Shown: positions 35,907 to 51,778, counted from the first letter of the stretch. The stretch: DNA of 64,000 bases from Rickettsia typhi (GCA_945862535.1 CAMAYG010000007.1:16864-80863), one strand, 5' to 3'. Made by a program: numbers and translations. The notes: generated by a model not told the origin, from the sequence alone.

Positions 35907-36764
35907 TTAGCGAACAATATATTTCTTATTGGAATTTGCTACTTGATTTGTAACCCTATTTCTAGGAGTGTCCTCGACAATCTGCAAGTTAACTTGTTGA
36001 TTACTAACTGCTTCATTATCATTACTAAATTGAGGCAATGCTACTGGTTGGCTAGGTGCTCCTGATTGGCTAGGTGGTTGAGGCAATGCTCCTGATTGGT
36101 TAGGTTGAGCACTTTCAACTCCCTGCGCTGCACCTGGCCTTTCTTTACAATATTTGACACATGTTGCTACTCCTACAATAACTGCTGAAAATGCCATAAT
36201 TCCTCCAACAGCTGCTGCACCGATAATTACATTCTTTATATTTTCCTTGGCTTCTAAATCTTTTTCGCTGTTAAAATTATTATCTCTATTAATCTTTACG
36301 AAATCACCGCCAACATCAAGAAACCAAGCCTTATCAATATCTGAGGTATTTTTTAAAGTAATAGTGTTATAAGATTTTTTTTGATTGTCTAATACTGCAA
36401 TAATCAAATCATTTCCTTTTTTAGCAATATTAAGATGTTCAAAATTAATGCCATTACCGCCACTAATTTTCATTGTTTTAGGGTCAAAATTCTCTATCAC
36501 TTGCGAATTTTCGCCCCAACCAAGATTGTATTTTTGAGGCTCGGCTATGACTTGAGATTCTTCTAAGTTTTCTTCTTTGCTAATTATATGGCTACTCCAG
36601 TCATATGAATCTTGAGACGGAAGCGATGTTAACGTTGTATTATTTAGTATTATCTTATCCTGAATAGCGCTTGGTGCTATTGAGAAGTCTGTTTGAGAGT
36701 TATTTGCATTGGCTTTGTTAAGTGCAGTAGCTGCCCCTAACGTTAGTAATATCAATTTTTTCAT
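35907..36764 (-). CDS. Signal-peptide protein with one W..ENFDP..module, a TM anchor and a Pro/Gln-rich tail (paralog of the island proteins)
   Basis: LGWGENSQVIENFDPKTMKISGGNGINFEHLNIAKKGNDLIIAVL matches the module in the 47572-50790 and 46020-47558 proteins. TM helix VIIGAAAVGGIMAFSAVIVGVATCV. Tail QPNQSGALPQPPSQSGAPSQP. Confidence 0.4.
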   Translation of the reverse strand: MKKLILLTLGAATALNKANANNSQTDFSIAPSAIQDKIILNNTTLTSLPSQDSYDWSSHIISKEENLEESQVIAEPQKYNLGWGENSQVIENFDPKTMKISGGNGINFEHLNIAKKGNDLIIAVLDNQKKSYNTITLKNTSDIDKAWFLDVGGDFVKINRDNNFNSEKDLEAKENIKNVIIGAAAVGGIMAFSAVIVGVATCVKYCKERPGAAQGVESAQPNQSGALPQPPSQSGAPSQPVALPQFSNDNEAVSNQQVNLQIVEDTPRNRVTNQVANSNKKYIVR

Positions 36765-39502: not shown

Positions 39503-40315
39503 TTAGCTAGTTTTTTGATTATTATCAATAGCTTTAATGGCGAAAGTTAAAAATATTACAGTAATAAAGTAACCGATAAACTGGCTTGCCGAAGGTTGAT
39601 CGATATAGCCAAATAGATTATTGAGAATTTGCCCAAAAAAGCTTTTTTGCGGTAATATTAACGAGAGATTGAATATTGGATCGACAATAGGGGCAATTAT
39701 TTCTGCATCTTGCCACAAGCCAATTCCAGAGGCAATAAGACCTGCCGAAAGAAATATTAACAAAATAGTAGTGATTTTAAAGAAGTAACGACCAAATGCT
39801 TTAATTATCCCAAAGTAAGTTGCAAAGCCAACCAACGTTCCAGTTAAGAGGCCAGCGATAAATCCTAGAAACAATTGCTCTAGTGGCACATCGGCAAGAT
39901 AAGAACTATAAAGAAAAAGAACAATTTCTGCCCCCTCTCTTAATGTTGCAAGCATAACGATAATTGCCAAAGATTTTGGCGGTTTCTGACCGCTTAAAAC
40001 CTTGTTGCCAATGTTTCTTAGTTTGTTACCAATATTCTTTGAGTGCTGTTTCATCCAGATTACGGTGTAGCCAATCATTAAAGCGGTGATAATTAGAATG
40101 GCACCATTAAATAGCTCTTGCCCTAAATTATTCATTGCACTGCTAATGAAATCTGTAGCAAATGCCAAAGCAACAGCTCCAGAAACTCCTAACAGAAAGC
40201 CCAAAACTAGCCAAGAGCTTCTCTTGCTTACCGCCCTAGTGGCGGCGGCAAGAATACCAATAATTATTGCGATTTCAATAACTTCGCGAAAAACAACAAT
40301 TGCAATTTGTAGCAT
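39503..40315 (-). CDS. FTR1/EfeU-family high-affinity iron permease
   Basis: Two RExxE motifs (FREVIEI and LREGAEI) within a 7-TM-like protein. Confidence 0.75.
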   Translation of the reverse strand: MLQIAIVVFREVIEIAIIIGILAAATRAVSKRSSWLVLGFLLGVSGAVALAFATDFISSAMNNLGQELFNGAILIITALMIGYTVIWMKQHSKNIGNKLRNIGNKVLSGQKPPKSLAIIVMLATLREGAEIVLFLYSSYLADVPLEQLFLGFIAGLLTGTLVGFATYFGIIKAFGRYFFKITTILLIFLSAGLIASGIGLWQDAEIIAPIVDPIFNLSLILPQKSFFGQILNNLFGYIDQPSASQFIGYFITVIFLTFAIKAIDNNQKTS

Positions 40316-40412
40316 TTTATCTGATATTGATGGTTTAATTTGATAATTAGTATCAAATAATTGCTATCATTTTGCTATGGCGAAAATAAAAGTCAAGAAT
40401 ATAGAAACATTA

Positions 40413-40498
40413 TTAACTATATTTTTTGCTTGAGTTTGAGTATTTTGAGTAAGGCTAAATTAGCAAAACCGCCTTTGTTTTTGTAATTTGTTGCCGTT
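40413..40498 (-). pseudogene. Decayed duplicate of the ribH 3' end (candidate distal att-site remnant)
   Basis: Hand alignment to 51290-51384. Identical blocks are ttaactatatt, gcttgagtttgag, attttgagt, aggctaaa, tagcaaa, cctttgttttt, aattt and ttgcc, with roughly 85 percent identity. Small indels break the ribH reading frame. Confidence 0.7.
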
Positions 40499-40561
40499 AT
40501 TGAAATTTTAATGCCATTTTATTAGACCAGATATTTCTTTGCAGAAATTTTATACCCCCGA

Positions 40562-41377
40562 TTAAGAAGCTTGGCGAAACAATTTGCCCTTGATATCGTT
40601 AATTGTCAGATCTGCAAATTCTATCTGTGCTTGAGTAATTCTTTTTTGCACAATTCTGGTGATGGTTTTTTCACTAATTGCTGTGCCGTAATTATTGTTA
40701 GAAAAAGAGATAAATATCGATTCTAGCTTTGTAATATCTAGGTTCTTGCGACCTAGACCTTGAGTAATAAGATCGATATATTTTATTAGTAAAGTTTTAA
40801 GATTTTTCTTAATGGTAATAGATTTTATCTTATCCTTTTTGCCCTTACTCGAAATAAATATTTTAGTAACTCCTTCGTTTTTTGATATATCAAAAATCGT
40901 TAATCTTACTAATTGCGAAGCGGAAAGATTGTGATATAATATCAGATTAAGGACGATTAAATCTCGCAAATCTTCAGCACCTGCAACAGCGAAATTAACC
41001 AGCTTCAACAACTCTCCATGAGCTATATCTTTGTAATTATCTACAACTAGGCCTCTTTGCTTCGTTAGATGAGGTAAATTTATGTTAATTTCACTATCGA
41101 TAATATTGGTGGCAATTCCCCAAGTTAGAACCTGCTGTAATGCCGAAGAATAGGAAATAAAAGTGTTGTAACTATAGATTTTTTCAAGAAAGTTGTAGTA
41201 ATATAGCGAACCTTCGCAACAATCTTCAAATTTGCTACGATGAACCTCGATATAATGAAGAAAATGATTGATTGCTATTAAATATAGCCTGCTGGTGCTT
41301 TTAGGAAAGTCGCTATTCTTTGTAAATTCTTCTATTATTTTTTGTAAATTCAAAATTTCTCGATCGATTTTAAGCAT
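40562..41377 (-). CDS. Tyrosine-recombinase (Xer/phage-integrase)-like protein, truncated and lacking catalytic residues
   Basis: Collinear with XerD through LRDLIVLNLILYHNLSASQLVRLTIFDIS...SSKGKKDKIKSITI...LFISFS. The first catalytic Arg is replaced (NLSAS), the HxxR box reads NDIKG, and the protein ends before the catalytic Tyr. Start placed at ATG 41377, which overlaps the hlyD stop (ATGCTTAA). Confidence 0.6.
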   Translation of the reverse strand: MLKIDREILNLQKIIEEFTKNSDFPKSTSRLYLIAINHFLHYIEVHRSKFEDCCEGSLYYYNFLEKIYSYNTFISYSSALQQVLTWGIATNIIDSEININLPHLTKQRGLVVDNYKDIAHGELLKLVNFAVAGAEDLRDLIVLNLILYHNLSASQLVRLTIFDISKNEGVTKIFISSKGKKDKIKSITIKKNLKTLLIKYIDLITQGLGRKNLDITKLESIFISFSNNNYGTAISEKTITRIVQKRITQAQIEFADLTINDIKGKLFRQAS

Positions 41378-42671
41378 CGCGAAACGACTTGTTAATTTGT
41401 TGTAATAAAGGCTCAAACAATATTGTTGCAAAGCTCTTCTTACCAACAACAATAAATGCTTCAACCTGCATGCCAGGATATAAGGTAAAATTATTAATTT
41501 TTGCCTTTTCTTTAGGATCTATCTTGATTCTAGCGATGTAATACATTCGACCATTTTGCTCTTTGGTAATATCTGGATCGAGATATATCAACTTTCCTGA
41601 TAGTTTTTTTGCAATTTTTGACTGTAAGGCACTAAAATTAATAATAACCGACATGTTGAGATGAACTACATCGATATCTTTTGGCTCAATTTTAACCTCA
41701 ACAAGAAGATCGTCACTTTGCGGAACGATATCGAGCAAATCTTGTCCAGATCTTAAGACCCCACCAATAGTAAAAACTTGTATATTGCGAATCATACCGC
41801 CAACAGGAGCAATAACCACAAGTCTTTGATTTACTTCTTTAGAGTTGTTATATTGTTTTTCTGCATCTTGCAACTGGCGAAGGTCTTCGCTGAGTTTATT
41901 TTGTAGGTTTCTACGATATTCAGTGTTAAGATTCTGGATTTTCATATTGATTTCAGTAATGCTTTGTGATGTTTTAGCTATTTCCGATTCATTGTTAATA
42001 AGGGCAATTTTTGCTTCTTGAGTTTGCTTGAGCGAATCTATCATTTTTTGCCTAGTGGTGTTGTTGCTTTTATACAATTCATCAATAGTTTTATTTTCTT
42101 TTTGTAGAAGACTAAGTTTTTCTTGCAAAATCACTCTTTGCTCTTGTAGATATATTTTTCTTTGCTTAGTGTCTGCGATTTGATTAGACAAGGCTCGCAG
42201 GTTTTCCTGGTGATTCATTTTTTCACTCTCTGCTATTGACATCTGTAGTTCGATTATCTTTTCTGGATATTCCTTGATTAGTGATTTGAGGTCTATATTG
42301 GAGTTGTTAATTTGACTTTTTATTCTTTCGACTTCCACCTTAAGATTTTCTAGCTGATATTTATTTGCTTTCAGGTTTTCAGAGCCTTGAACTTCTGAAA
42401 GCCTAATTAGTTCTTGACCCTGCTTGACAATATCGCCATTTTTTACCAGAATTTCCTTAACTATACCACCTTCAAGATGTTGCACAGTTTTTTTATTAAA
42501 GTCGATTACCACCTGACCGGGAGCGACCGCAGCGGTGTTTATTTTAAAAAAGAATAAACAAAATACTATAACAAAAACACAAAGAAAAACTGTGAGCGAA
42601 GCTTTTCGTAGATATTTATTTATGATTTGCCATTCTTTGGCAATGACCTGTTCTGTGCTCTGATTTGACAT
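41370..42671 (-). CDS. Type I secretion membrane fusion protein (HlyD family)
   Basis: N-terminal TM helix, APGQVVIDFNKKTVQHLEGGIVKEILVKNGDIVKQGQELIRL (lipoyl-like), a long coiled coil, VIAPVGGMI, and a C-terminal beta domain. Confidence 0.85.
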   Translation of the reverse strand: MSNQSTEQVIAKEWQIINKYLRKASLTVFLCVFVIVFCLFFFKINTAAVAPGQVVIDFNKKTVQHLEGGIVKEILVKNGDIVKQGQELIRLSEVQGSENLKANKYQLENLKVEVERIKSQINNSNIDLKSLIKEYPEKIIELQMSIAESEKMNHQENLRALSNQIADTKQRKIYLQEQRVILQEKLSLLQKENKTIDELYKSNNTTRQKMIDSLKQTQEAKIALINNESEIAKTSQSITEINMKIQNLNTEYRRNLQNKLSEDLRQLQDAEKQYNNSKEVNQRLVVIAPVGGMIRNIQVFTIGGVLRSGQDLLDIVPQSDDLLVEVKIEPKDIDVVHLNMSVIINFSALQSKIAKKLSGKLIYLDPDITKEQNGRMYYIARIKIDPKEKAKINNFTLYPGMQVEAFIVVGKKSFATILFEPLLQQINKSFRDA

Positions 42672-42688
42672 TTGTTCGTTTCAACATT

Positions 42689-44323
42689 TTAGTGTTTTAT
42701 TAAGCCATTCTCTAAATAAAACACCTTATCGGATATTTTTAACAATTCAAGGCTTTTTCCAGACATTATTGTCGTTACTCCTTGCTTTCTTAGATCTAAA
42801 AGCAATTTTGATATTACCAAAACCTCTTGTTCGCCTTCAACATCAACATCATCTAATATCAAGATCTTTGGATCGCTATAAATTGTACTCGCAAAAGCAA
42901 TTCTTCTGGAAAGACTAAAGCCAAGATTGCAACCATTATCGATAATTTTAGTATTATAGCCGCTCTCAAAACTATTAATCAAATTATGACAATTAAGCTT
43001 TTGACTAGCCTTAATAACATTATCGATATTTGCTTTCTGATCTAGTCTAGCAATAGATTCTCTAATGTTATCACCTACTAATTTCTGATCTATGATTTGA
43101 GGCAAATAGCCAATTATCTTGCCCAAGCTTTCCTTGCTCACTAAAGATAAATCTATTTGATCGTATTTCACCATGCCAGATATTGGCTTATAAATTCCCG
43201 CAAGCAATTTTAGCATTGTGCTCTTGCCAGACATTGATGAGCCAGTTATAAGGTTAATAGTTGCTGAGGCTATTTCAATATTGGCGCCTTTGAGTATTGG
43301 CTTTTTAGTTTCTGGGTAAATAAATATCAACCTCTCGCCACTAATTTTTCCACTAAATTTAGAAATCTCTATCGGCTTTTTACTTTCATGGGTGACTTTA
43401 ATATTTTTAACCAAACTACGATAGGCAGATCTTGCCTCGGGCAAATTTGCAAAAGCTGTCGAGAATTTAGCAAATAGAGTGAGAGCTTTACTACTTAGAA
43501 TTGAAGAGGCAATTATTGCCCCTGTGGTTAGCTGATCTTGTAAAATTAAATATCCACAAAGGCCCGTGGTTAAGATCTGCAAGATGGTTCTTGTTGCATT
43601 GGTTGCTTCGTTGTATCTGTTTTGAGTTGCCTTTTGATCTAATTTATTCAGCCCTTCTTCCTGTTTAAAAAAACTAAATCTTTGCAACAAATTGCCAATT
43701 ATACCATTTGCCTGAGCTACTCCACCAAGTTTTTTTATTGATTCGATCTGATTATTAGCAAGATAATTATATTTATAAGCAACTTTCTGACTAGATTTAG
43801 ACAGGATTTTACCCAATTCGGTTAAAGCAAAAATTAGAAAACCACCAAAAATAGTTAAAAACCCAACAAAAGGATGGAGAAAAAACAAGAATAAGAGATA
43901 AATTAACACAAATGGCCCCTCAATCAAACCCACCAGAAACGACACAATAAAATTATGCAGTTTTTTAAAATATTCGACATTGTCGGCAACGATATTTTCA
44001 TTCTGGTAAATCACATTCTGACTAACCGTTTCGTTTGCAACCATAGAAACCAATAGTCCAGAAAATATGTAGTCGATACGGTTAATAACTTTTTGTTTTA
44101 TTTTTTCTAAAATAGTGCTAAAAATAATTGCAACAACAATAACAAAAGTCAATACCAATAAGGTTTCGAGGCTACGAGAACCGATAACTTTATCCATCAC
44201 TTGCAAAGAATACATTGGCACCGCAAGTTGCAAAATATGTGAGACACCGCTAATTAAGGCAATAGGGACGATGGTTTTCTTGATGCGAATTAGGTTATTT
44301 TCTATTAAATGTTGCTTATCCAT
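42689..44323 (-). CDS. Type I secretion ABC transporter (PrtD/HasD-like, no C39 domain) with degenerate nucleotide-binding motifs
   Basis: 544 aa with a six-TM region plus an NBD. Walker A GSSMSGKST and Q-loop GYLPQ are retained. The signature reads LGFSLSRR instead of LSGGQ, Walker B is ILILDD-V (no catalytic Glu), and the H-loop position reads MSGK (no His). Confidence 0.8.
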   Translation of the reverse strand: MDKQHLIENNLIRIKKTIVPIALISGVSHILQLAVPMYSLQVMDKVIGSRSLETLLVLTFVIVVAIIFSTILEKIKQKVINRIDYIFSGLLVSMVANETVSQNVIYQNENIVADNVEYFKKLHNFIVSFLVGLIEGPFVLIYLLFLFFLHPFVGFLTIFGGFLIFALTELGKILSKSSQKVAYKYNYLANNQIESIKKLGGVAQANGIIGNLLQRFSFFKQEEGLNKLDQKATQNRYNEATNATRTILQILTTGLCGYLILQDQLTTGAIIASSILSSKALTLFAKFSTAFANLPEARSAYRSLVKNIKVTHESKKPIEISKFSGKISGERLIFIYPETKKPILKGANIEIASATINLITGSSMSGKSTMLKLLAGIYKPISGMVKYDQIDLSLVSKESLGKIIGYLPQIIDQKLVGDNIRESIARLDQKANIDNVIKASQKLNCHNLINSFESGYNTKIIDNGCNLGFSLSRRIAFASTIYSDPKILILDDVDVEGEQEVLVISKLLLDLRKQGVTTIMSGKSLELLKISDKVFYLENGLIKH

Positions 44324-44348
44324 AAATGATATTTATTGTTTTGTTATT

Positions 44349-45995
44349 TTACAGCTGATCGATATTCGCTTCACCAAGAAGCTCGAGAATATTATAAAAA
44401 CCAATTGCGAGATCTGTGTTGACATTGATTAATTCATCGCTCTTTGAATAGAGATTATTGATAAAATACAATAATTCAAAGTTATCTTTAAGTCCATTGC
44501 TAAATTCAATAAAAGCATTGTCATATATCTTGCTTGCAACCTGATAATTTCTTTTTGAAGCAATTAGCAATTTGCGATTAATATTAAAACGAGCAATCTC
44601 CGACTGAATCGCAGACAAAACACCAAGAGAATCTTCGCGGTATTTTGCCATAACAGCACGATAATCGGCATTAGTCGAGTTAAGATTATATTTATCTTGC
44701 CAAGAATCAAAGACAGGCAAAGAAACCTTAATATTTATCGATCTTTCGTTTTGATTGTAATTTTGCTGAGCATTTGCCTGAGTGTCATATTGATTTTTTG
44801 CTAATGAAGCATCGAAATCAACTCTAGGCATAAAGTTAGATTTGGCAATATTTCTTAATGATTTTTTTAGCGAGACTTCGGTTTTTGACTGCTTAATTCT
44901 TGGTGAGCTTTTAATGTGAAGCTCGATATCTTGGCTTATTTTTGCTACTTCCGTTTCAAAAGATGATAATTTATTTTCAATAAAATTAGCTATTTCTTCC
45001 CGATTTTCCAATGCTAAATAAGTGTCTTGTTGCTGATTTAGCATTTGCCTTAAACGATATTTTTCTTGGAATATTTGCTGATTTATTCTTTCTTGCTTTA
45101 TTATTGCATTGTTTAAGCTTACCTCGACTTGTAAAAAATCGCTCTTGGTTATTTCGTATTTCGACAATTTTTGGCGACTATTTTCTAGATGTTGCTGATA
45201 AACTAGAAGCTCTTGCTTGGCATTTTTAAGCAATTCATTTAGCCTAAGAAAATTAAGATAAGACTTTACAACACCAACAATTAGAGACTGCTGTTGGGCT
45301 TTGAAATCGTATTTAGCAATTTCTAGGCGACTAGATTCTGCACTTAAGCGATTTAGACCCGCAAAACCTTCAAATAGATTTTGTCTTAGTAGTATTTGTC
45401 TCGTGTTTTCATTGGTGGTAAATTTATCGATATTATTCGCAGAAGATTTTTTATAGCTATTGTCCGATGACTGATATTCTAAGCTAATTTTTGGCATCAT
45501 TGCCGAAACTTTTGCATCTCGTTGCCAGTTCTGCGAACTTACTAATTCTTCCTTTTGTTTAAGGGCATTATTATTTGCCAATGCAACACTGATTAGGTTT
45601 TTTAAACTATTGCTAATGTTTTCTGAAGAATTGGCTCTTGCTGAATCTTGTTTTGATAAATCATTTTTTTCTTCGCCAACAACTATTGCAAGACTATTAA
45701 CGGCCTTGAGGTTGGGAGAAGGAGCAAGATTTATCCTATTAATATTTGCATCTTTTTGCTTTTCTTTGCTGTTGTAATTATTAGCTTTATTAGCTTTATT
45801 GACAATTTTATAACTTGAAACTTTGGGCAGGGCAATCTTATTATTTACTTTTTTACCCTCTGCAAGAACAGGAAATTGTTTATTAGCATTCTCTGCCCTA
45901 GTGTCAAGATTTAGCACAAATGCCAAAATAAACGAAAATAAGAATAATATTTTGCTTTTTATGTTAAAATTATGCAAGCATTGTTTAATAAGCAT
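44349..45995 (-). CDS. TolC-family outer membrane efflux protein
   Basis: Signal peptide, a ~120-aa low-complexity Asn/Lys-rich extension, then a duplicated coiled-coil/beta pattern typical of TolC (e.g. NNNALKQKEE...QNWQRDAK). Confidence 0.75.
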   Translation of the reverse strand: MLIKQCLHNFNIKSKILFLFSFILAFVLNLDTRAENANKQFPVLAEGKKVNNKIALPKVSSYKIVNKANKANNYNSKEKQKDANINRINLAPSPNLKAVNSLAIVVGEEKNDLSKQDSARANSSENISNSLKNLISVALANNNALKQKEELVSSQNWQRDAKVSAMMPKISLEYQSSDNSYKKSSANNIDKFTTNENTRQILLRQNLFEGFAGLNRLSAESSRLEIAKYDFKAQQQSLIVGVVKSYLNFLRLNELLKNAKQELLVYQQHLENSRQKLSKYEITKSDFLQVEVSLNNAIIKQERINQQIFQEKYRLRQMLNQQQDTYLALENREEIANFIENKLSSFETEVAKISQDIELHIKSSPRIKQSKTEVSLKKSLRNIAKSNFMPRVDFDASLAKNQYDTQANAQQNYNQNERSINIKVSLPVFDSWQDKYNLNSTNADYRAVMAKYREDSLGVLSAIQSEIARFNINRKLLIASKRNYQVASKIYDNAFIEFSNGLKDNFELLYFINNLYSKSDELINVNTDLAIGFYNILELLGEANIDQL

Positions 45996-46019
45996 TATGA
46001 GATAAGATGATTTGTTAAT

Positions 46020-47558
46020 TTAGTTTTCAAGATAATCAACTTGATCGTCGTTTGAGTAATCGCTGTAATCGGCATCGTCGCTATAATAATTATCTGGAAT
46101 ATCGTCGCTGAATTGAGCTTTTTTTAAATTTTCTTGCTCTATATAATTAACTTCTTGCACTATTTCGTAGTCCTGAACTTCTGTATTTTGTTGATATGAA
46201 CTTAGCTGACTTACTTCCTTAACGGCAATATCATAATCAACAAGATACTCAATTTTAAAAATATCTGACCTAGTCGGATTGTCCCAGTCGATAAAATTTG
46301 TGATATTTAACTGCGAAACCGCAATGCCAGAAAAAAACAACGATAAAAAGTTTGGATTGGTGTAATATTCTATCAAAACACCAGACTCACCATTAACAAA
46401 GTCGTTTTTAATAAGAAATGTTCCAGGGTAATAGGTATTTGGGTCGAAGTCAAAATCTATTTTATCAATATTGGGGTTAAAATTTTTGATGATAAATTTT
46501 GATTCTTGATATTTTATCAAATCAACATCTTTATTATTATATCCACTACTTCTATCGATATAATAAGTTTTGCTGAAAGCTCTAGTAACATCGTTTTGTG
46601 ACTCTGGAGCTGGTTCTGGCTCTTGATATGAGGCTTTTACCTTGTCGATTTCTAAAACTATCCGACTGGCTTCTTCGTTATAAGAACTTTGATTAAATTC
46701 GTAAGAATCTTGCTCGGGTTGCTGATAGATATTTGCAAGTTTTGTTGCCGATTCTGAATTACTGAATCTCTCAATGCCTTCTTTGGAGGATGGCACAGAG
46801 GACGATTTAGCATCTTGATTGCTAATATCTTGGCTCTGCGATATGGCAATATTAACTATCGCCTTATTAGTGAATTTTTCTGGGGTTGAATTTTGCTCTT
46901 TTGCAGGGCTTGATAGTTCGCCAGAGTTTTTATTTACAGCGGTCTTTTTATCTTTTATTTTATTATTAGCAAAATTTACTGAATTTTCTTTATTGCTAGA
47001 GATTAAATGATTGTCTTTTACTAGGTTCTTGCTACTTAATTCTGGTAATATTTGCTCCTTCTCTCTTGGTTTTTGGTATAATAATTGTTGACGATTGTAA
47101 TCATCGACATCCAAAACCTCGGCACCTTCTGTATTTGATAATTCATTATCTTGATTACTTATGATTTTGACATTATTTTGCTTTGACGCCTTAGGATCTT
47201 TTAGCTCTCGATGTTCTTTGGCATTTAATTCTTTTATCGCTACATCCTGATTAAAAACTCCAACCATCACGGCAAGACCAGCTGTTAGGTCGTTTGCCGA
47301 TTGCGAACTAGACTTCTCTTTTTCTTCTTGAGATTTACGATTTTGTATTTTGATATTATGAGCTTCGCTACTAATTTGATTTGCGATATTTTGAGAATCG
47401 GAGCTTTGACTTGTCTCTATTGCCAGTAATTCTGCATTTATTAGCAGATCGGAATCGAGAACTGAATTGTTATTGCTATTGTTATTATCGCGATCTTGCG
47501 ATAAAGAATTTTTACTCTTATTAACCGCAAGATCGGATTTATTGTCATCTATCGTCAC
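46020..47558 (-). CDS. Acidic low-complexity protein with one C-terminal NFNP..DKID module; putative T1SS passenger
   Basis: GTG start 14 nt after the upstream stop. FIIKNFNPNIDKIDFDFDP...SGIAVSQLNITNF matches the module of the upstream gene. The C-terminus is strongly acidic (DDADYSDYSNDDQVDYLEN). Confidence 0.4.
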   Translation of the reverse strand: MTIDDNKSDLAVNKSKNSLSQDRDNNNSNNNSVLDSDLLINAELLAIETSQSSDSQNIANQISSEAHNIKIQNRKSQEEKEKSSSQSANDLTAGLAVMVGVFNQDVAIKELNAKEHRELKDPKASKQNNVKIISNQDNELSNTEGAEVLDVDDYNRQQLLYQKPREKEQILPELSSKNLVKDNHLISSNKENSVNFANNKIKDKKTAVNKNSGELSSPAKEQNSTPEKFTNKAIVNIAISQSQDISNQDAKSSSVPSSKEGIERFSNSESATKLANIYQQPEQDSYEFNQSSYNEEASRIVLEIDKVKASYQEPEPAPESQNDVTRAFSKTYYIDRSSGYNNKDVDLIKYQESKFIIKNFNPNIDKIDFDFDPNTYYPGTFLIKNDFVNGESGVLIEYYTNPNFLSLFFSGIAVSQLNITNFIDWDNPTRSDIFKIEYLVDYDIAVKEVSQLSSYQQNTEVQDYEIVQEVNYIEQENLKKAQFSDDIPDNYYSDDADYSDYSNDDQVDYLEN

Positions 47559-47571
47559 CTAATTATATATT

Positions 47572-50500
47572 TTATTGATATTCATCTTGAGATTCTTGAT
47601 AGTCGTGTTGGATAATACTATCGGCAGAATTGTCATCTTCTAGGTTGCCAATAGCCACTTCGTAGCCAGATTGACTTCCTTCAACCTCTGCAACAAGAGC
47701 TGTGTCAATATCGACATCATTAGCAATCTCGCTATCAGATGAAGAAGGTGTAAGGTTGATGCTTTTTGAATCTACCACCGCTTTATCATATCCTGTAATA
47801 TTTTTAAAATTACCAATTTCGCCACCAAAATTTAGGCTTGTCAGCTGGTCGGCACTAACTCCTGTTAATAGGACCTTCACAAATTGCGAACCTTCGCTAT
47901 AACGAACATCTTGCAAAGATAGGCCTTCGTTAGTTTGTACTATTTTATAGACTTGGGCAAAGAATGGCAATTCCAAAACATCTTTTGCCGGATCAAATTT
48001 GATAATATAATCTGGCTCAAGCTTATTATTGCTGTCGTAGCCTTTATATTGAGGCAGTTTAAATACTTTGCCACCCTGACTAGATGAAACATTGCTTTCG
48101 CTTTTAATCGACATAAAATCTTGTTCTTTTGTTGTTGTGTTTATTTTGTTGCTATCGATATTCGCATTATTGTTATCGGTCGTGCTGCTAATGTCTTTAT
48201 TTTCAACCGCCTCAGGTAATTTTTCTTTGCCAATATTAGAATCGATAGCAGTGTGAGAATCGACAGCATCAGAACTGTTGCTAATAACCGATTCTATTGC
48301 TTCGACATATGAATGCGACATTTCGTCGCGAACAAAACTTCCGCCTGGTTGGAAACCGCTAAAATTATCGAGACCAATATCATTTGCAGATATGCCCTTA
48401 AGAATAATACCGTTTTCTGCATTTTCAAGCACAATCTTTGCATTATTATTTCCTAAATCAATAACCTTTATCTGACTCAAATTCATCCAGCCATTAGCAC
48501 TAATAGAATTAGTTGCGATATTAAAGTTTTCGACAACAGTATCTTTATTGTACCACCACTCAACTTTAATAACTTCATTTTTATTAATTGTGCTGTTATT
48601 GCTATTAACATTATTTTGCGGGTTGGTTGGCTGATTCTGGACAATATTTTGTTCGACTGCAGGCTTAATCTCTTCAGCTATTGGTTTAGTCTCTTCGACA
48701 ATCTCCCGCCCCTTGATAATTTTTATATATTCAATCTCTTCTTGAAACTTTACTGGAGTATTAAAAACAATATCGGGCAAATCTTGTTCGATAACATCGG
48801 GAAAAATAAAATAATCGCTTGTATCATTATTTGCCGTAATAATTTGGCTATTGTTAGCAGTTTTACCATCGCTAAATTTTCCAGCAAAACCAAAAAAGTT
48901 ATTTTGCCCTAATGCCGAAGCCTTAACTCCCGCTAGCACAATACCAAAATCTTTTTGTGAGCCGTAGCAGATCATCGCTCCCTCTGCGGTATCTTTAACG
49001 GTAATTTGCGATAAATCCATACCACCAGTACTAGCCCCGATAGAATCGGTGTCAGGATCAAAGTTTTCAATCGGAGTCTGCTTCGACCAATAGCTCCAAG
49101 TCATTTTTGCTTCGATATTAACCTGGCCCATAGCCGAGAAAAAGCCAGTTACCCCAGTAAACATTTTTTGGCTAATCTGACTTACAGAAACACCTTTTAA
49201 CTCAATATATGCATGCATCCCGCCATCTTCACCAATAGAGCCAACCTTAACACTATTGCCGTCTTGAACAACTCTTAGATCTTTAAAGTCTATACCGCTG
49301 GTCCCTTGTATTTTATCGAACTGAGGATTGAAATTTTCAACTACATCCTTACCGCTCCAGCCAATTTTATAAAAATTAGAATTAGCAGTAATTTTATTAA
49401 GATTTATAGATAGTCGATCTTTGGTCACTCCTTCAAATTCTAATTCATAATTACCAACTTTTAAAGTAGCATTGCCATTTTTTTCGCCAATAATTTTCTC
49501 TTTTGCTATATCGCCAAAATTTCTGAAGACAATGTTATCTTTATTAAAATCGAAATCTTTTAACAAAGTTGTTCCACCACCTTTGCCATCGTTTTCTATG
49601 ATAACAGAGTCGTTGCCCTCGCCAGTAACAATAGAGTTATTTCCAGAGCTAGGAGTAAATTCTTCCGAATATTTATCACCAACTAAGATATCATTAACAT
49701 TCGAGCCAAAGATAGTATTATGACCACCAAAATCGTAAAGATATTTCAAATTCGAAGTGCCAGTTTCATCAACTCGAAAAATGCCAGTCAAGAGAGTATC
49801 TGCCGCTCCCCAAGCTCCAGTTAAGTGAGCCATTGCTAATATTCCCGACATCGTAACTTTTACCGTTGTAGTAACTTCAGCTTCTGTGGTTTTTAAAGTG
49901 CCATTATAAGATTCCTTGCCAAGAGTAATTTTGATATTCAGATCTTTCGCTTTCAGCTCGGCAATTTGTTCATCTGTATAAGAAGACTTAAAGCTATAAG
50001 GATATTCCTTATTTAGGATATCGCCAAGGCTTTTGTCATTTTTTGTAAAAATATCTTTGATAACATTGAGATTAAATTTCATTACTTCGCGAATTGCCAT
50101 TTCTTGCTTTGCTGGGTCGGTTAAATCGTCAAAATTATTGATACCATATTTTCCAGTGAAGCTACCCTTCCATTGATTCGAGTTAGTAATGACAAATTTT
50201 GCATTGGCCTGATTTGTTACCTCTAATTTATCATAACTAGCGTTCCACTTCATAAATTTTTCGGTTTCGCCCGGGCCAAATGCCGTGCCATCGGTCCACA
50301 TATAATATTTAGGCAGACTTGCTCCAGAGCCATTTTTAAGACCGCTATCTTGCGGTGTATATATTCCCGCATCAATCAAAACAGCTTCTCCAAGCTGATA
50401 ACCAACAAAACCCCAAGGATTCACCACTTTATATTGAATCGACTCAACAACTTTAGTTGCTTGCTCTAGTAATTCTGGCTTAATATTTTGGTTGCTATCA

Positions 50501-50790
50501 AGAGCAGTGCTTTTAACTTTAAGATTTTCATCGAAAATTCCTAGTTTTTTCATTTCGTTTTCGAAAATTCTAGCGGTATGTAATTTAGTAAAATATTTTT
50601 GAATTGTTCCCTCTTCAGGAATAATTTTGTTTTGATATAATAAGCCATTTTCATCGAGCTTGGCATATTTTATCACCGCTCCTTGATTATAATTGGTAAT
50701 ATACCATTGAGTTAGAGCGGGATTGGTTCCGGATTCAAAAGCCCTCAAGCTAGTGAGAAAGCTTTGGATATTAGTATTAGGGTTTTTCAT
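47572..50790 (-). CDS. Large (1072 aa) putative T1SS substrate: lysozyme-like N-terminal domain, two degenerate RTX-like nonapeptides, five W..ENF[ND]P modules, acidic C-terminus
   Basis: No N-terminal signal peptide. N-terminal motifs are LRAFESG, GFVGYQLGEAVLIDAGIY and GILAMAHLTGAWGA. GSNVNDILVGD and TGEGNDSVII are RTX-like. Five repeated modules are quoted in the findings. First gene of the T1SS operon. Confidence 0.5.
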   Translation of the reverse strand: MKNPNTNIQSFLTSLRAFESGTNPALTQWYITNYNQGAVIKYAKLDENGLLYQNKIIPEEGTIQKYFTKLHTARIFENEMKKLGIFDENLKVKSTALDSNQNIKPELLEQATKVVESIQYKVVNPWGFVGYQLGEAVLIDAGIYTPQDSGLKNGSGASLPKYYMWTDGTAFGPGETEKFMKWNASYDKLEVTNQANAKFVITNSNQWKGSFTGKYGINNFDDLTDPAKQEMAIREVMKFNLNVIKDIFTKNDKSLGDILNKEYPYSFKSSYTDEQIAELKAKDLNIKITLGKESYNGTLKTTEAEVTTTVKVTMSGILAMAHLTGAWGAADTLLTGIFRVDETGTSNLKYLYDFGGHNTIFGSNVNDILVGDKYSEEFTPSSGNNSIVTGEGNDSVIIENDGKGGGTTLLKDFDFNKDNIVFRNFGDIAKEKIIGEKNGNATLKVGNYELEFEGVTKDRLSINLNKITANSNFYKIGWSGKDVVENFNPQFDKIQGTSGIDFKDLRVVQDGNSVKVGSIGEDGGMHAYIELKGVSVSQISQKMFTGVTGFFSAMGQVNIEAKMTWSYWSKQTPIENFDPDTDSIGASTGGMDLSQITVKDTAEGAMICYGSQKDFGIVLAGVKASALGQNNFFGFAGKFSDGKTANNSQIITANNDTSDYFIFPDVIEQDLPDIVFNTPVKFQEEIEYIKIIKGREIVEETKPIAEEIKPAVEQNIVQNQPTNPQNNVNSNNSTINKNEVIKVEWWYNKDTVVENFNIATNSISANGWMNLSQIKVIDLGNNNAKIVLENAENGIILKGISANDIGLDNFSGFQPGGSFVRDEMSHSYVEAIESVISNSSDAVDSHTAIDSNIGKEKLPEAVENKDISSTTDNNNANIDSNKINTTTKEQDFMSIKSESNVSSSQGGKVFKLPQYKGYDSNNKLEPDYIIKFDPAKDVLELPFFAQVYKIVQTNEGLSLQDVRYSEGSQFVKVLLTGVSADQLTSLNFGGEIGNFKNITGYDKAVVDSKSINLTPSSSDSEIANDVDIDTALVAEVEGSQSGYEVAIGNLEDDNSADSIIQHDYQESQDEYQ

Positions 50791-51289
50791 TGGAAAATAT
50801 AATATTTTGTTTCTTAAAATTATAAAGCTATATTATTGTGCCTTCGTTTTCTTTTAGTTTTGATATAAGACTTATTTTGATAATATTTTAGCTAGAGTAA
50901 AATAAAAACGAAAGCAAAAAAAATCTTAAACTTAATATTTTATGTGTCAATAAAAAAATAACAGACATTGAAAATTTTTTTAAAATATTTACGATCGCCT
51001 TTTAAGCTAGTATTTTCCTAGATGTAATGGCTATTTTATTAAATTTTTTAAAATATTTCTAGAAAATTATTTTAAATTTTTAATAAAAACAATGCTAGTT
51101 CCCTTGTTAATCATAGTATTTTTTGAGAAAATGAAGATTATAATCATATAGTTGATTATATTTCCCAGCTTTTTCAAAATTTAGAGCCGAAATATGTTTA
51201 GAGTAGAAAGTAAGGCCTACAACTATTTGGTTATTTAAATAGTTCGTTCTTTATTGGAAATAATGCAAGAAATATTGTTAATCGTTGAA

Positions 51290-51778
51290 TTAACTATATT
51301 CTTGCTTGAGTTTGAGCATTTTGAGTGAGGCTAAAGTAGCAAAGCCACCTTTGTTTTTTTGCAATTTACTTGCCCTTGCGGTTGCTTGCTGATGGTTTTC
51401 TACGGTAATAATGCCATTGCCAATTGGCAACAGATGGTTTATTGCCAAATTATTGATACCTCTGGCACTTTCATTGCAAACAATATCGTAATGGCTAGTT
51501 TCGCCACGAATCACACAGCCTAAGGCAACAAAAGCAATATTGTTGATTTTAGAAATCTCGATATTATTATTTTTGGCAATTGAGTTGGCGATTATATTAA
51601 TTGCCGTTGGTATTTCTAATGCCCCATCGACAGATACAATTTCGCAATCGATAGATTCGGCAAAAATATTTTGATTTTTTATTGCCTCTTCCGCCCCTTC
51701 AAGCAACAAAGCAGAGATGTCTTTGTAGAAATTTGCCTGAATAATAAAAACTTTAACCACTTTAGCCACTTTAACCAT
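51290..51778 (-). CDS. ribH: 6,7-dimethyl-8-ribityllumazine synthase
   Basis: IIQANFYKDISALLLEGA, ALGCVIRGETSHYDIV and ANGIITVEN-type motifs. Its last ~31 codons (51290-51384) form the proximal copy of the island repeat. Confidence 0.85.
   Translation of the reverse strand: MVKVAKVVKVFIIQANFYKDISALLLEGAEEAIKNQNIFAESIDCEIVSVDGALEIPTAINIIANSIAKNNNIEISKINNIAFVALGCVIRGETSHYDIVCNESARGINNLAINHLLPIGNGIITVENHQQATARASKLQKNKGGFATLASLKMLKLKQEYS

Follow-up and report, generated by a model that had tools for sequence, protein, structure and literature searches.

The 64,000-nucleotide (nt) stretch considered here, deposited as Rickettsia typhi (GCA_945862535.1 CAMAYG010000007.1:16864-80863) and called the window in what follows, contains an island of about 11 kb that lies between ribH and a gene for an iron permease of the FTR1 family. 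Each end of the island is marked by a copy of the ribH 3' end, of which copy B is part of the gene itself and copy A lies on the FTR1 side (Table 1). The six genes between the copies had been listed correctly in a first-pass annotation made from the sequence alone, and open reading frame (ORF) calls together with Pfam and NCBIfam searches place all of them on the minus strand. They encode two putative secreted proteins, the three parts of a type I secretion system and the relic of a tyrosine recombinase, and the start of the recombinase ORF overlaps the stop codon of the HlyD gene by 8 nt. We consider it probable that this is a fixed island of the e14/icd type, which arose by recombination in the 3' end of ribH, likely via the adjacent recombinase, and which carries a secretion gene set. 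The target gene scores 96.8 bits against TIGR00114, above the cut-off of 84.6. The island genes are one co-oriented set, probably transcribed from the AT-rich leader; the best promoter-like match there in a consensus scan is TTGACA-16-TAAGAT (50950-50923), the number of such matches not being above chance.

Table 1. Features of the ribH island and its flanks, with positions counted from the first nucleotide of the window (aa, amino acids).
Feature	Position	Strand	Remarks
FTR1/EfeU-family iron permease	39503..40315	-	core gene on far side of insertion; Pfam FTR1 E 3.6e-38
Native ribH-FTR1 spacer ('beta' flank)	40316..40410	-	conserved in all lineages; promoter-like match for FTR1
Repeat copy A (attR-like junction)	40411..40518	-	decaying out-of-frame ribH 3' fragment, contiguous with native ribH-FTR1 spacer
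Frameshifted recombinase tail	40519..40575	-	+1 frame, AKLLNRGYKISAKKYLV, then TAATAA; ends exactly at start of ribH fragment
Tyrosine-recombinase relic, 271 aa	40562..41377	-	catalytic residues lost; Pfam Phage_integrase 27.1 bits
HlyD-family type I secretion adaptor	41370..42671	-	TIGR01843
PrtD-type type I secretion ABC permease/ATPase	42689..44323	-	degenerate ATPase motifs; TIGR01842 E 2.6e-101
TolC-family outer-membrane channel	44349..45995	-	Pfam OEP E 2.4e-32
512-aa acidic, low-complexity protein	46020..47558	-	putative second substrate
1072-aa putative secreted protein	47572..50790	-	
AT-rich island leader	50791..51264	-	GC 0.28
25-nt 'alpha' junction	51265..51289	-	TTCAACGATTAACAATATTTCTTGC (ribH sense), just after ribH stop
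Repeat copy B (attL-like junction)	51288..51418	-	last ~129 nt of ribH including stop codon, still coding
ribH (6,7-dimethyl-8-ribityllumazine synthase)	51290..51778	-	target gene; intact, 162 aa; Pfam DMRL_synthase E 5.6e-36

The repeat is well beyond what base composition would produce. A local alignment of 40380-40520 against 51270-51420, which the first-pass annotation had proposed as a check, scores 110, against a mean of 17.5 (standard deviation 2.5, maximum 33) for 2000 shuffles and a maximum of 30 for 3000 random pieces of the window. Within 38-54 kb it is the sole strong direct repeat (60 nt at 90%), the others there being short and about 70% identical, and in a negative control none of 80 distant alphaproteobacterial ribH loci had a second ribH 3' end within 10 kb. 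The repeat does begin at the ribH stop codon (TTA at 51290-51292, plus strand), as had been described, and its position was given rightly; its extent had been put at about 95 nt and is greater than that. Beyond a 24-nt deletion in copy A, AATGGCATTA (the ribH codons NGI, Asn-Gly-Ile) recurs at 40509-40518 and 51409-51418, with a score that is reached by 27 of 3000 shuffles. The sequences just past the two stops have no significant similarity, and a weak extension of the repeat beyond the stop in a MAFFT alignment was dropped for that reason. Copy A, about 110 nt long, carries three small indels and the 24-nt deletion, and its lineage-specific substitutions amount to about 5 per 100 nt.

Contigs of relatives were taken via protein clusters at 90% identity, and their flanking genes are 92-98% identical across lineages; among the species representatives of GTDB there is no close relative, the best ribH match being about 53-55% identical. 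In the 90% clusters, FTR1 and ribH have members from several other samples, and the six island genes have members only from the window's own species. Four states of the locus were seen among the fetched contigs: an empty site, the island of the window, an alternative cassette and the content of contig L087. The empty site, which the first-pass annotation had predicted, is found in L092 (ENA ERZ27280299, about 93% identical), where lpdA and ribH are followed by 95 nt and FTR1. Positions 1-1204 of L092 correspond to 52506-51294 of the window at 93.7%, and positions 1121-1848 to 40498-39783 at 92.1%; the 84-nt overlap of the two alignments is the duplicated segment, which L092 has as a single copy. 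A mis-join in L092 is unlikely, because its flanks are evenly diverged on both sides and the repeat is shorter than the final k of the assembler, which is 141 according to the contig names. Compared with this real empty site, the 11 kb block is thus inserted DNA. One boundary of the insertion is the ribH stop codon and the other is the ribH 3' fragment joined to the native spacer, copy A being contiguous with the same spacer and FTR1 as are seen in L092, L089 and L090.

In four further relatives (L089, L090, L091 and L093) ribH is followed by the same 25 nt, TTCAACGATTAACAATATTTCTTGC, and then by about 0.8 kb of unrelated DNA with one 245-aa gene, after which a short ribH-like fragment, enlarged by slippage, leads into the native spacer and FTR1. 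The fragment of this sister lineage scores 40, against a shuffle maximum of 32. The alpha junction is thus identical next to a different cassette (L089, by blastn to window 51265, and L093) and it is absent from the empty site. As far as the ribH stop, contig L087 and L089 are 97% identical; beyond it, L087 is unrelated to the other compared sequences. Since the sister cassette and the divergence of L087 at the stop codon mark the same place, we conclude that the ribH-FTR1 junction is a hot spot for insertions of varying content in a small clade of freshwater alphaproteobacteria that are uncultured and AT-rich, and that the repeat cannot be tied to the cargo of the window alone. The habitat is taken from one sample from Lake Mendota, a freshwater lake; contigs from there (Joint Genome Institute, JGI, 3300059473) hint at more arrangements, one of which, with 96 nt between the end of an ORF and FTR1, may be a second empty site.

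Some smaller observations belong to these sites. L090 has the 245-aa cassette gene (125-862) in one piece, and in L089 it is broken into two ORFs; the encoded protein resembles nothing in the window, is without a recorded Pfam hit and contains an N-terminal membrane segment. In L087, the 131 nt after the stop (1816-1946) match none of the compared sequences; they contain a small GC-rich hairpin with T's after it and the start of an ORF, MSNAKLISHA. In the more distant L088 (69% ribH identity), lpdA and ribH are followed 18 nt later by an rmlC-like gene (633-815, with a dTDP-4-dehydrorhamnose epimerase motif read by eye), so that the adjacency of ribH and FTR1 is specific to the close clade. 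The last ribH codons are prone to slippage: in L092 (1190-1220) a 12-nt duplication gives ...KQKYRQKYS, and the ribH fragment in L089, L090 and L091 (L089 5505-5566) contains several 12-nt periodic copies (TAGGCAAAAACT / CAAGCAAAGATT / CAGGCAAAAATA ...). An inverted repeat, GTTAAT-TCAACG-ATTAAC, spans the ribH stop in the window (51270-51295, minus strand) and in L089, with the counterpart GTTAAT-AAGGCA-ATTATC in L087 (1808-1835); the empty site is without it, and it may be due to chance in AT-rich DNA. GTTAAT-N6-ATTAAC was considered as the core site of a recombinase and rejected, as a crossover there would not leave different spacers at the two junctions. A comparison of the 23-nt native spacer with metagenome contigs gave two chance matches only, and a scan of viral contigs for the alpha junction and the repeat core gave nothing.

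The gene next to copy A is integrase-like and dead. Its match to Phage_integrase is at the threshold and covers profile positions 3-125 of 172, and the XerA, XerC and XerD models match weakly. The first-pass annotation had called the enzyme catalytically inactive, and the details bear this out: Arg-I is replaced by Ser (GLRVSEL of XerD aligns with NLSASQL), the HxxR position reads NDIK when the sequence is read by eye, and the ORF stops before the second histidine (His-II) and the catalytic Tyr. The ORF ends 43 nt from copy A. When the +1-frame tail AKLLNRGYKISAKKYLV, which abuts copy A, is appended, the Pfam score rises to 31.0 bits and the match extends to profile position 148 of 172; the gene has therefore suffered a 3' frameshift, and a deletion has cut it off at the border with copy A. 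The 5' edge that copy A has today is a scar of that deletion and need not mark the point of crossover. Searches of 5.8 billion proteins and of 50,697 phage records gave no homologue of the recombinase. Within the tail lies a 23-mer, AAATTTCTGCAAAGAAATATCTG (40528-40550, minus strand), that matches ribH codons 16-23 at 20 of 23 positions (NFCKEISGL versus NFYKDISAL), a score reached by about 0.4% of real-sequence controls. Read in another frame, these bases are the recombinase tail, and the 23-mer may have either origin.

The ABC permease/ATPase, the HlyD adaptor and the TolC channel, encoded together, are a divergent type I secretion system. HlyD scores 295.3 bits against TIGR01843, above the cut-off of 208.65; the best models for the ABC protein and for TolC are TIGR01842 (339.8 bits, below the cut-off of 510) and TIGR01844 (117.6 bits, E 6.7e-34, below the cut-off of 225). 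Aligned with Aquifex PrtD (5l22) and with ABCB1, the ABC ATPase has Walker A and the Q-loop, and in both alignments (residues about 460-525) LSGGQ is replaced by LGFSL, the Walker-B Glu by Asp and the H-loop His by Lys. Both ATPase sites would be degenerate in a homodimer of such a protein. The reading frame of the gene is maintained despite the replaced catalytic motifs. In a search of plasmid records the best relatives of the ABC protein were alphaproteobacterial, at 26-29% identity, which is uninformative for placing the secretion genes.

The first-pass annotation spoke of two giant repeat proteins, which holds for the 1072-aa protein and not for the 512-aa protein. The former has an N-terminal domain (about residues 1-355), a region that resembles the beta-roll of repeats-in-toxin (RTX) proteins and an acidic C-terminus, with five degenerate repeats of about 85 aa that start near residues 410, 484, 574, 753 and 929; the latter has one such unit, near residue 357, also an acidic C-terminus, and no Pfam or NCBIfam hit. 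The closest relative of the 1072-aa protein is a 1500-aa metagenome protein (66%), and its first 640 or so residues are 30-35% identical to proteins of about 725 aa with chitin-binding modules (about 59% of the query). Its family profile matches the RTX beta-roll of family I.3 lipases at E 1.4e-6. The AlphaFold model (predicted local distance difference test, pLDDT, 85; predicted template modelling score, pTM, 0.80) matches LipA, PML lipase, the AlgE6 R-module and RTX block V of CyaA at E 4e-5 to 6e-4, and residues 1-355 of the model have no significant fold match in the PDB. HemolysinCabind has no Pfam match among the proteins of the window; some homologues of the 1072-aa protein carry it (PF00353). 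From the acidic C-termini and the adjacency of the genes, both proteins are plausible substrates of the secretion system beside them.

The family of the N-terminal domain is not in Pfam; it has more than 150 cluster representatives at E below 1e-10, and many of its members are stand-alone proteins of about 290 aa, with acidic residues and one histidine invariant. One ~85-aa unit as in the 1072-aa protein is also found outside the island, together with a transmembrane segment, in a 286-aa ORF (35907-36764, minus strand; tblastn 31% over 87 aa, E 1.7e-6). This ORF lies between the ZnuA and TACO1/YebC genes, which are 18 nt apart in a relative from Lake Mendota, and the 286-aa gene is therefore also lineage-specific and co-occurs with the secretion island.

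The cargo has been kept, as the first-pass annotation had argued: about 10 kb of island ORFs run without frame disruption except in the tail of the recombinase, while copy A decays. With copy A as an internal neutral clock, the secretion genes appear to be under selection.

We hypothesize that a recombination event within the last ~130 nt of ribH brought the island in, in the manner of e14 and phage 21 in icd of Escherichia coli. The incoming DNA would have carried its own ribH-like 3' end, so that ribH stayed intact with copy B as its new end, and the displaced native end, copy A, would have been kept beside the old ribH-FTR1 spacer and been decaying since. The most likely agent is the recombinase encoded next to copy A. 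As the relic is now dead and cut off by the deletion at copy A, the island is fixed in place, and from its gene content it would encode a type I secretion system and two likely substrates. Site-specific integration into the 3' end of ribH, as first proposed, agrees with the repeat, the empty site and the geometry of the locus; what did not stand is that the repeat is specific to this cargo. Copy B may be element-supplied, as the first-pass annotation had it, although only one informative site points that way; the synonymous differences GGTGGC/GGCGGT in copy B were rejected as a sign of element origin, since L093 has an intermediate state.

Several observations weigh against this account. Relatives without the secretion cluster (L089, L090, L091 and L093) keep a ribH-like fragment before FTR1, which the first-pass annotation had itself named as contrary evidence, and this sister lineage, which has neither the secretion genes nor the recombinase, also has the identical alpha junction. 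There was either one old integration with later replacement of the cargo or several elements that share the site, and in the former case the recombinase and the cargo need not have created the repeat. The many changes in the active site of the recombinase, set against a repeat that is only about 5% diverged, suggest that by the time of the duplication the enzyme had probably lost its activity or was very divergent; this weakens its candidacy as the agent of integration but does not remove it. The integrase-like gene lies at the end far from the intact gene, which is the less common layout for islands in tRNA genes. Pfam and NCBIfam scans found no excisionase, relaxase or conjugation genes among the six island ORFs, and the island has no other transfer genes and no recognisable core or arm sites. 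A foreign composition, which had been looked for as a mark of the island, is not there: GC, GC at third codon positions (GC3), codon usage and tetranucleotides are all within the range of the flanks. Given this and the weak alphaproteobacterial plasmid matches, nothing points to a distant donor; either the island is old or its donor belonged to the same clade. The event may have been an insertion in the window lineage or a loss in L092, the topology of the flanks being the unrooted ((window, L092), (L089, L087)), with a synonymous divergence (dS) of 0.18 between the window and L089 (about 0.09 per lineage) and of 0.20 between the window and L092. Finally, the degenerate motifs of the ABC protein make the secretion activity uncertain.

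It is not far-fetched to ask whether homologous recombination could have built the same structure. An excised island of a related strain, a fragment of one of its plasmids or other circular DNA with part of ribH on it could have entered ribH by a RecA single crossover of the Campbell type, or the ribH-FTR1 interval could have been swapped via the flanking core genes, with the relic as passive cargo in both cases. The host-like composition fits a donor of the same clade, the recombinase has apparently long been dead, and three different contents between the same core genes are the usual pattern of a hot spot that works by flanking homology. The repeat is moreover at least 108-131 nt long and, with a deletion scar at its 5' edge, was perhaps once longer; the 23-mer AAATTTCTGCAAAGAAATATCTG, if real, would mean that most of ribH was once duplicated, but it is explained at least equally well as the frameshifted recombinase tail. 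A tyrosine-recombinase gene that abuts the repeat, as in att-type elements, and a repeat that ends at the stop codon, as expected of an element with a replacement gene end, are what make us regard homologous recombination as unlikely, even if it otherwise predicts the same structure and the present data cannot separate the two. It is somewhat more doubtful, in our opinion, that the locus has a history in two steps. An older, small element would then have made the repeat and the alpha junction in the common ancestor of the window and L089 lineages; its cargo would have given way to the secretion genes and the relic at a later time in the window lineage, and the repeat would stem from another event than the arrival of this island. 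At 25 of 25 positions the alpha junction is the same, and both lineages have a ribH fragment with unrelated cargo between, although such identity is expected by chance in an estimated ~12% of cases at 92% identity. The ~5% divergence of copy A is of the same order as the neutral divergence of one lineage (dS ~0.09), but the two fragments share no obvious derived changes, and that of L089 is more decayed and has the 12-nt slippage, which fits independent events equally well. The relic also sits exactly at the edge of the fragment, as expected for an original attP-int module, and there is no evident mechanism for the replacement.

A more speculative picture, to which we give little credence, is that the ribH stop is an attachment site for exchangeable cassettes, from the 245-aa gene to the 11 kb island, which share the alpha junction and depend for their movement on a recombinase that acts in trans from elsewhere, while the local relic is translationally coupled to HlyD and kept as a non-catalytic DNA-binding protein. 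If true, the end of a housekeeping gene would here serve as an integron-like exchange site. That the whole arrangement is an assembly artefact or a chance repeat in AT-rich DNA is effectively refuted. The window does come from a short-read metagenome assembly (k141 contig names), but the repeat scores far beyond shuffles and real-sequence controls, its copies differ and are hence not collapsed, and it is too short against the final k to cause mis-joins. Both junctions also recur in independent assemblies of the same species at an identity of at least 99.9% (the ribH side in L002 and L003, the FTR1 side in L086), a level that every other island-carrying assembly reaches, and an artefact is therefore unlikely. 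Recombination into the 3' end of ribH, probably by the adjacent recombinase, thus remains the explanation that we prefer.

Among known secretion systems, those of the PrtD/LipB class (Serratia LipA, Pseudomonas PML lipase and the serralysins) are the most similar to the cargo. They have in common with it an ABC protein without an N-terminal peptidase domain that is found together with HlyD, TolC and likely substrates, and the putative beta-roll region of the 1072-aa protein matches those lipases and block V of CyaA, the C-termini also being acidic. The island differs from this class in the ~85-aa unit and the N-terminal domain, which are outside Pfam and NCBIfam, in the missing HemolysinCabind match, and in ABC and TolC proteins that fall below the NCBIfam cut-offs, with the ABC signature, the catalytic Glu and the H-loop His replaced. 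The 1072-aa protein further shares many invariant columns with carbohydrate-binding proteins of about 725 aa that have a C-terminal CBM_5_12 and come from chitinolytic bacteria (Andreprevotia, Pseudoalteromonas rubra and Photobacterium), but it has extra repeat units in place of the chitin-binding module. The questions that the cargo raises are what the domain shared with chitin-binding proteins does, and how an ABC protein with replaced motifs works.

As an island, the closest parallel is e14, which in E. coli is flanked by icd and by icdC, a pseudogene of the icd C-terminus (PMC13626634, citing Hill et al. 1989). Islands of the SGI1 type are a wider comparison: SGI1 is reported to integrate at the 3' end of trmE (PMC8409611), and such islands resemble the ribH island in using the 3' end of a conserved gene, in having direct repeats at both ends and accessory cargo, and in their variable occupancy. 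They differ in their intact integrases, excisionases, mobilisation functions and short repeats, none of which the ribH island has. No paper among the top-ranked results of our literature search names ribH as an attachment site. The ribH island leaves the understanding of genomic islands unchanged, but it is a clean natural case of genes being acquired at the 3' end of a housekeeping gene in an almost unsampled, AT-rich lineage of freshwater alphaproteobacteria, where empty, occupied and alternatively occupied sites are all found in related metagenome populations. It differs from e14, a prophage remnant whose integrase works and whose excision is induced by the SOS response, in having a dead recombinase and no phage genes, ribH as its target, a secretion system as cargo, and a displaced fragment that is out of frame and partly deleted. 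The loss of e14 leaves one hybrid copy of icd (PMC13626634). As for e14 and phage 21 at icd, the target is the 3' end of a housekeeping, protein-coding gene that is left intact, and as for e14 a C-terminal fragment of the target lies at the far end of the element beside the native downstream DNA (PMC13626634); the ribH island is in this respect a clear but ordinary case of a known route by which bacteria gain genes.

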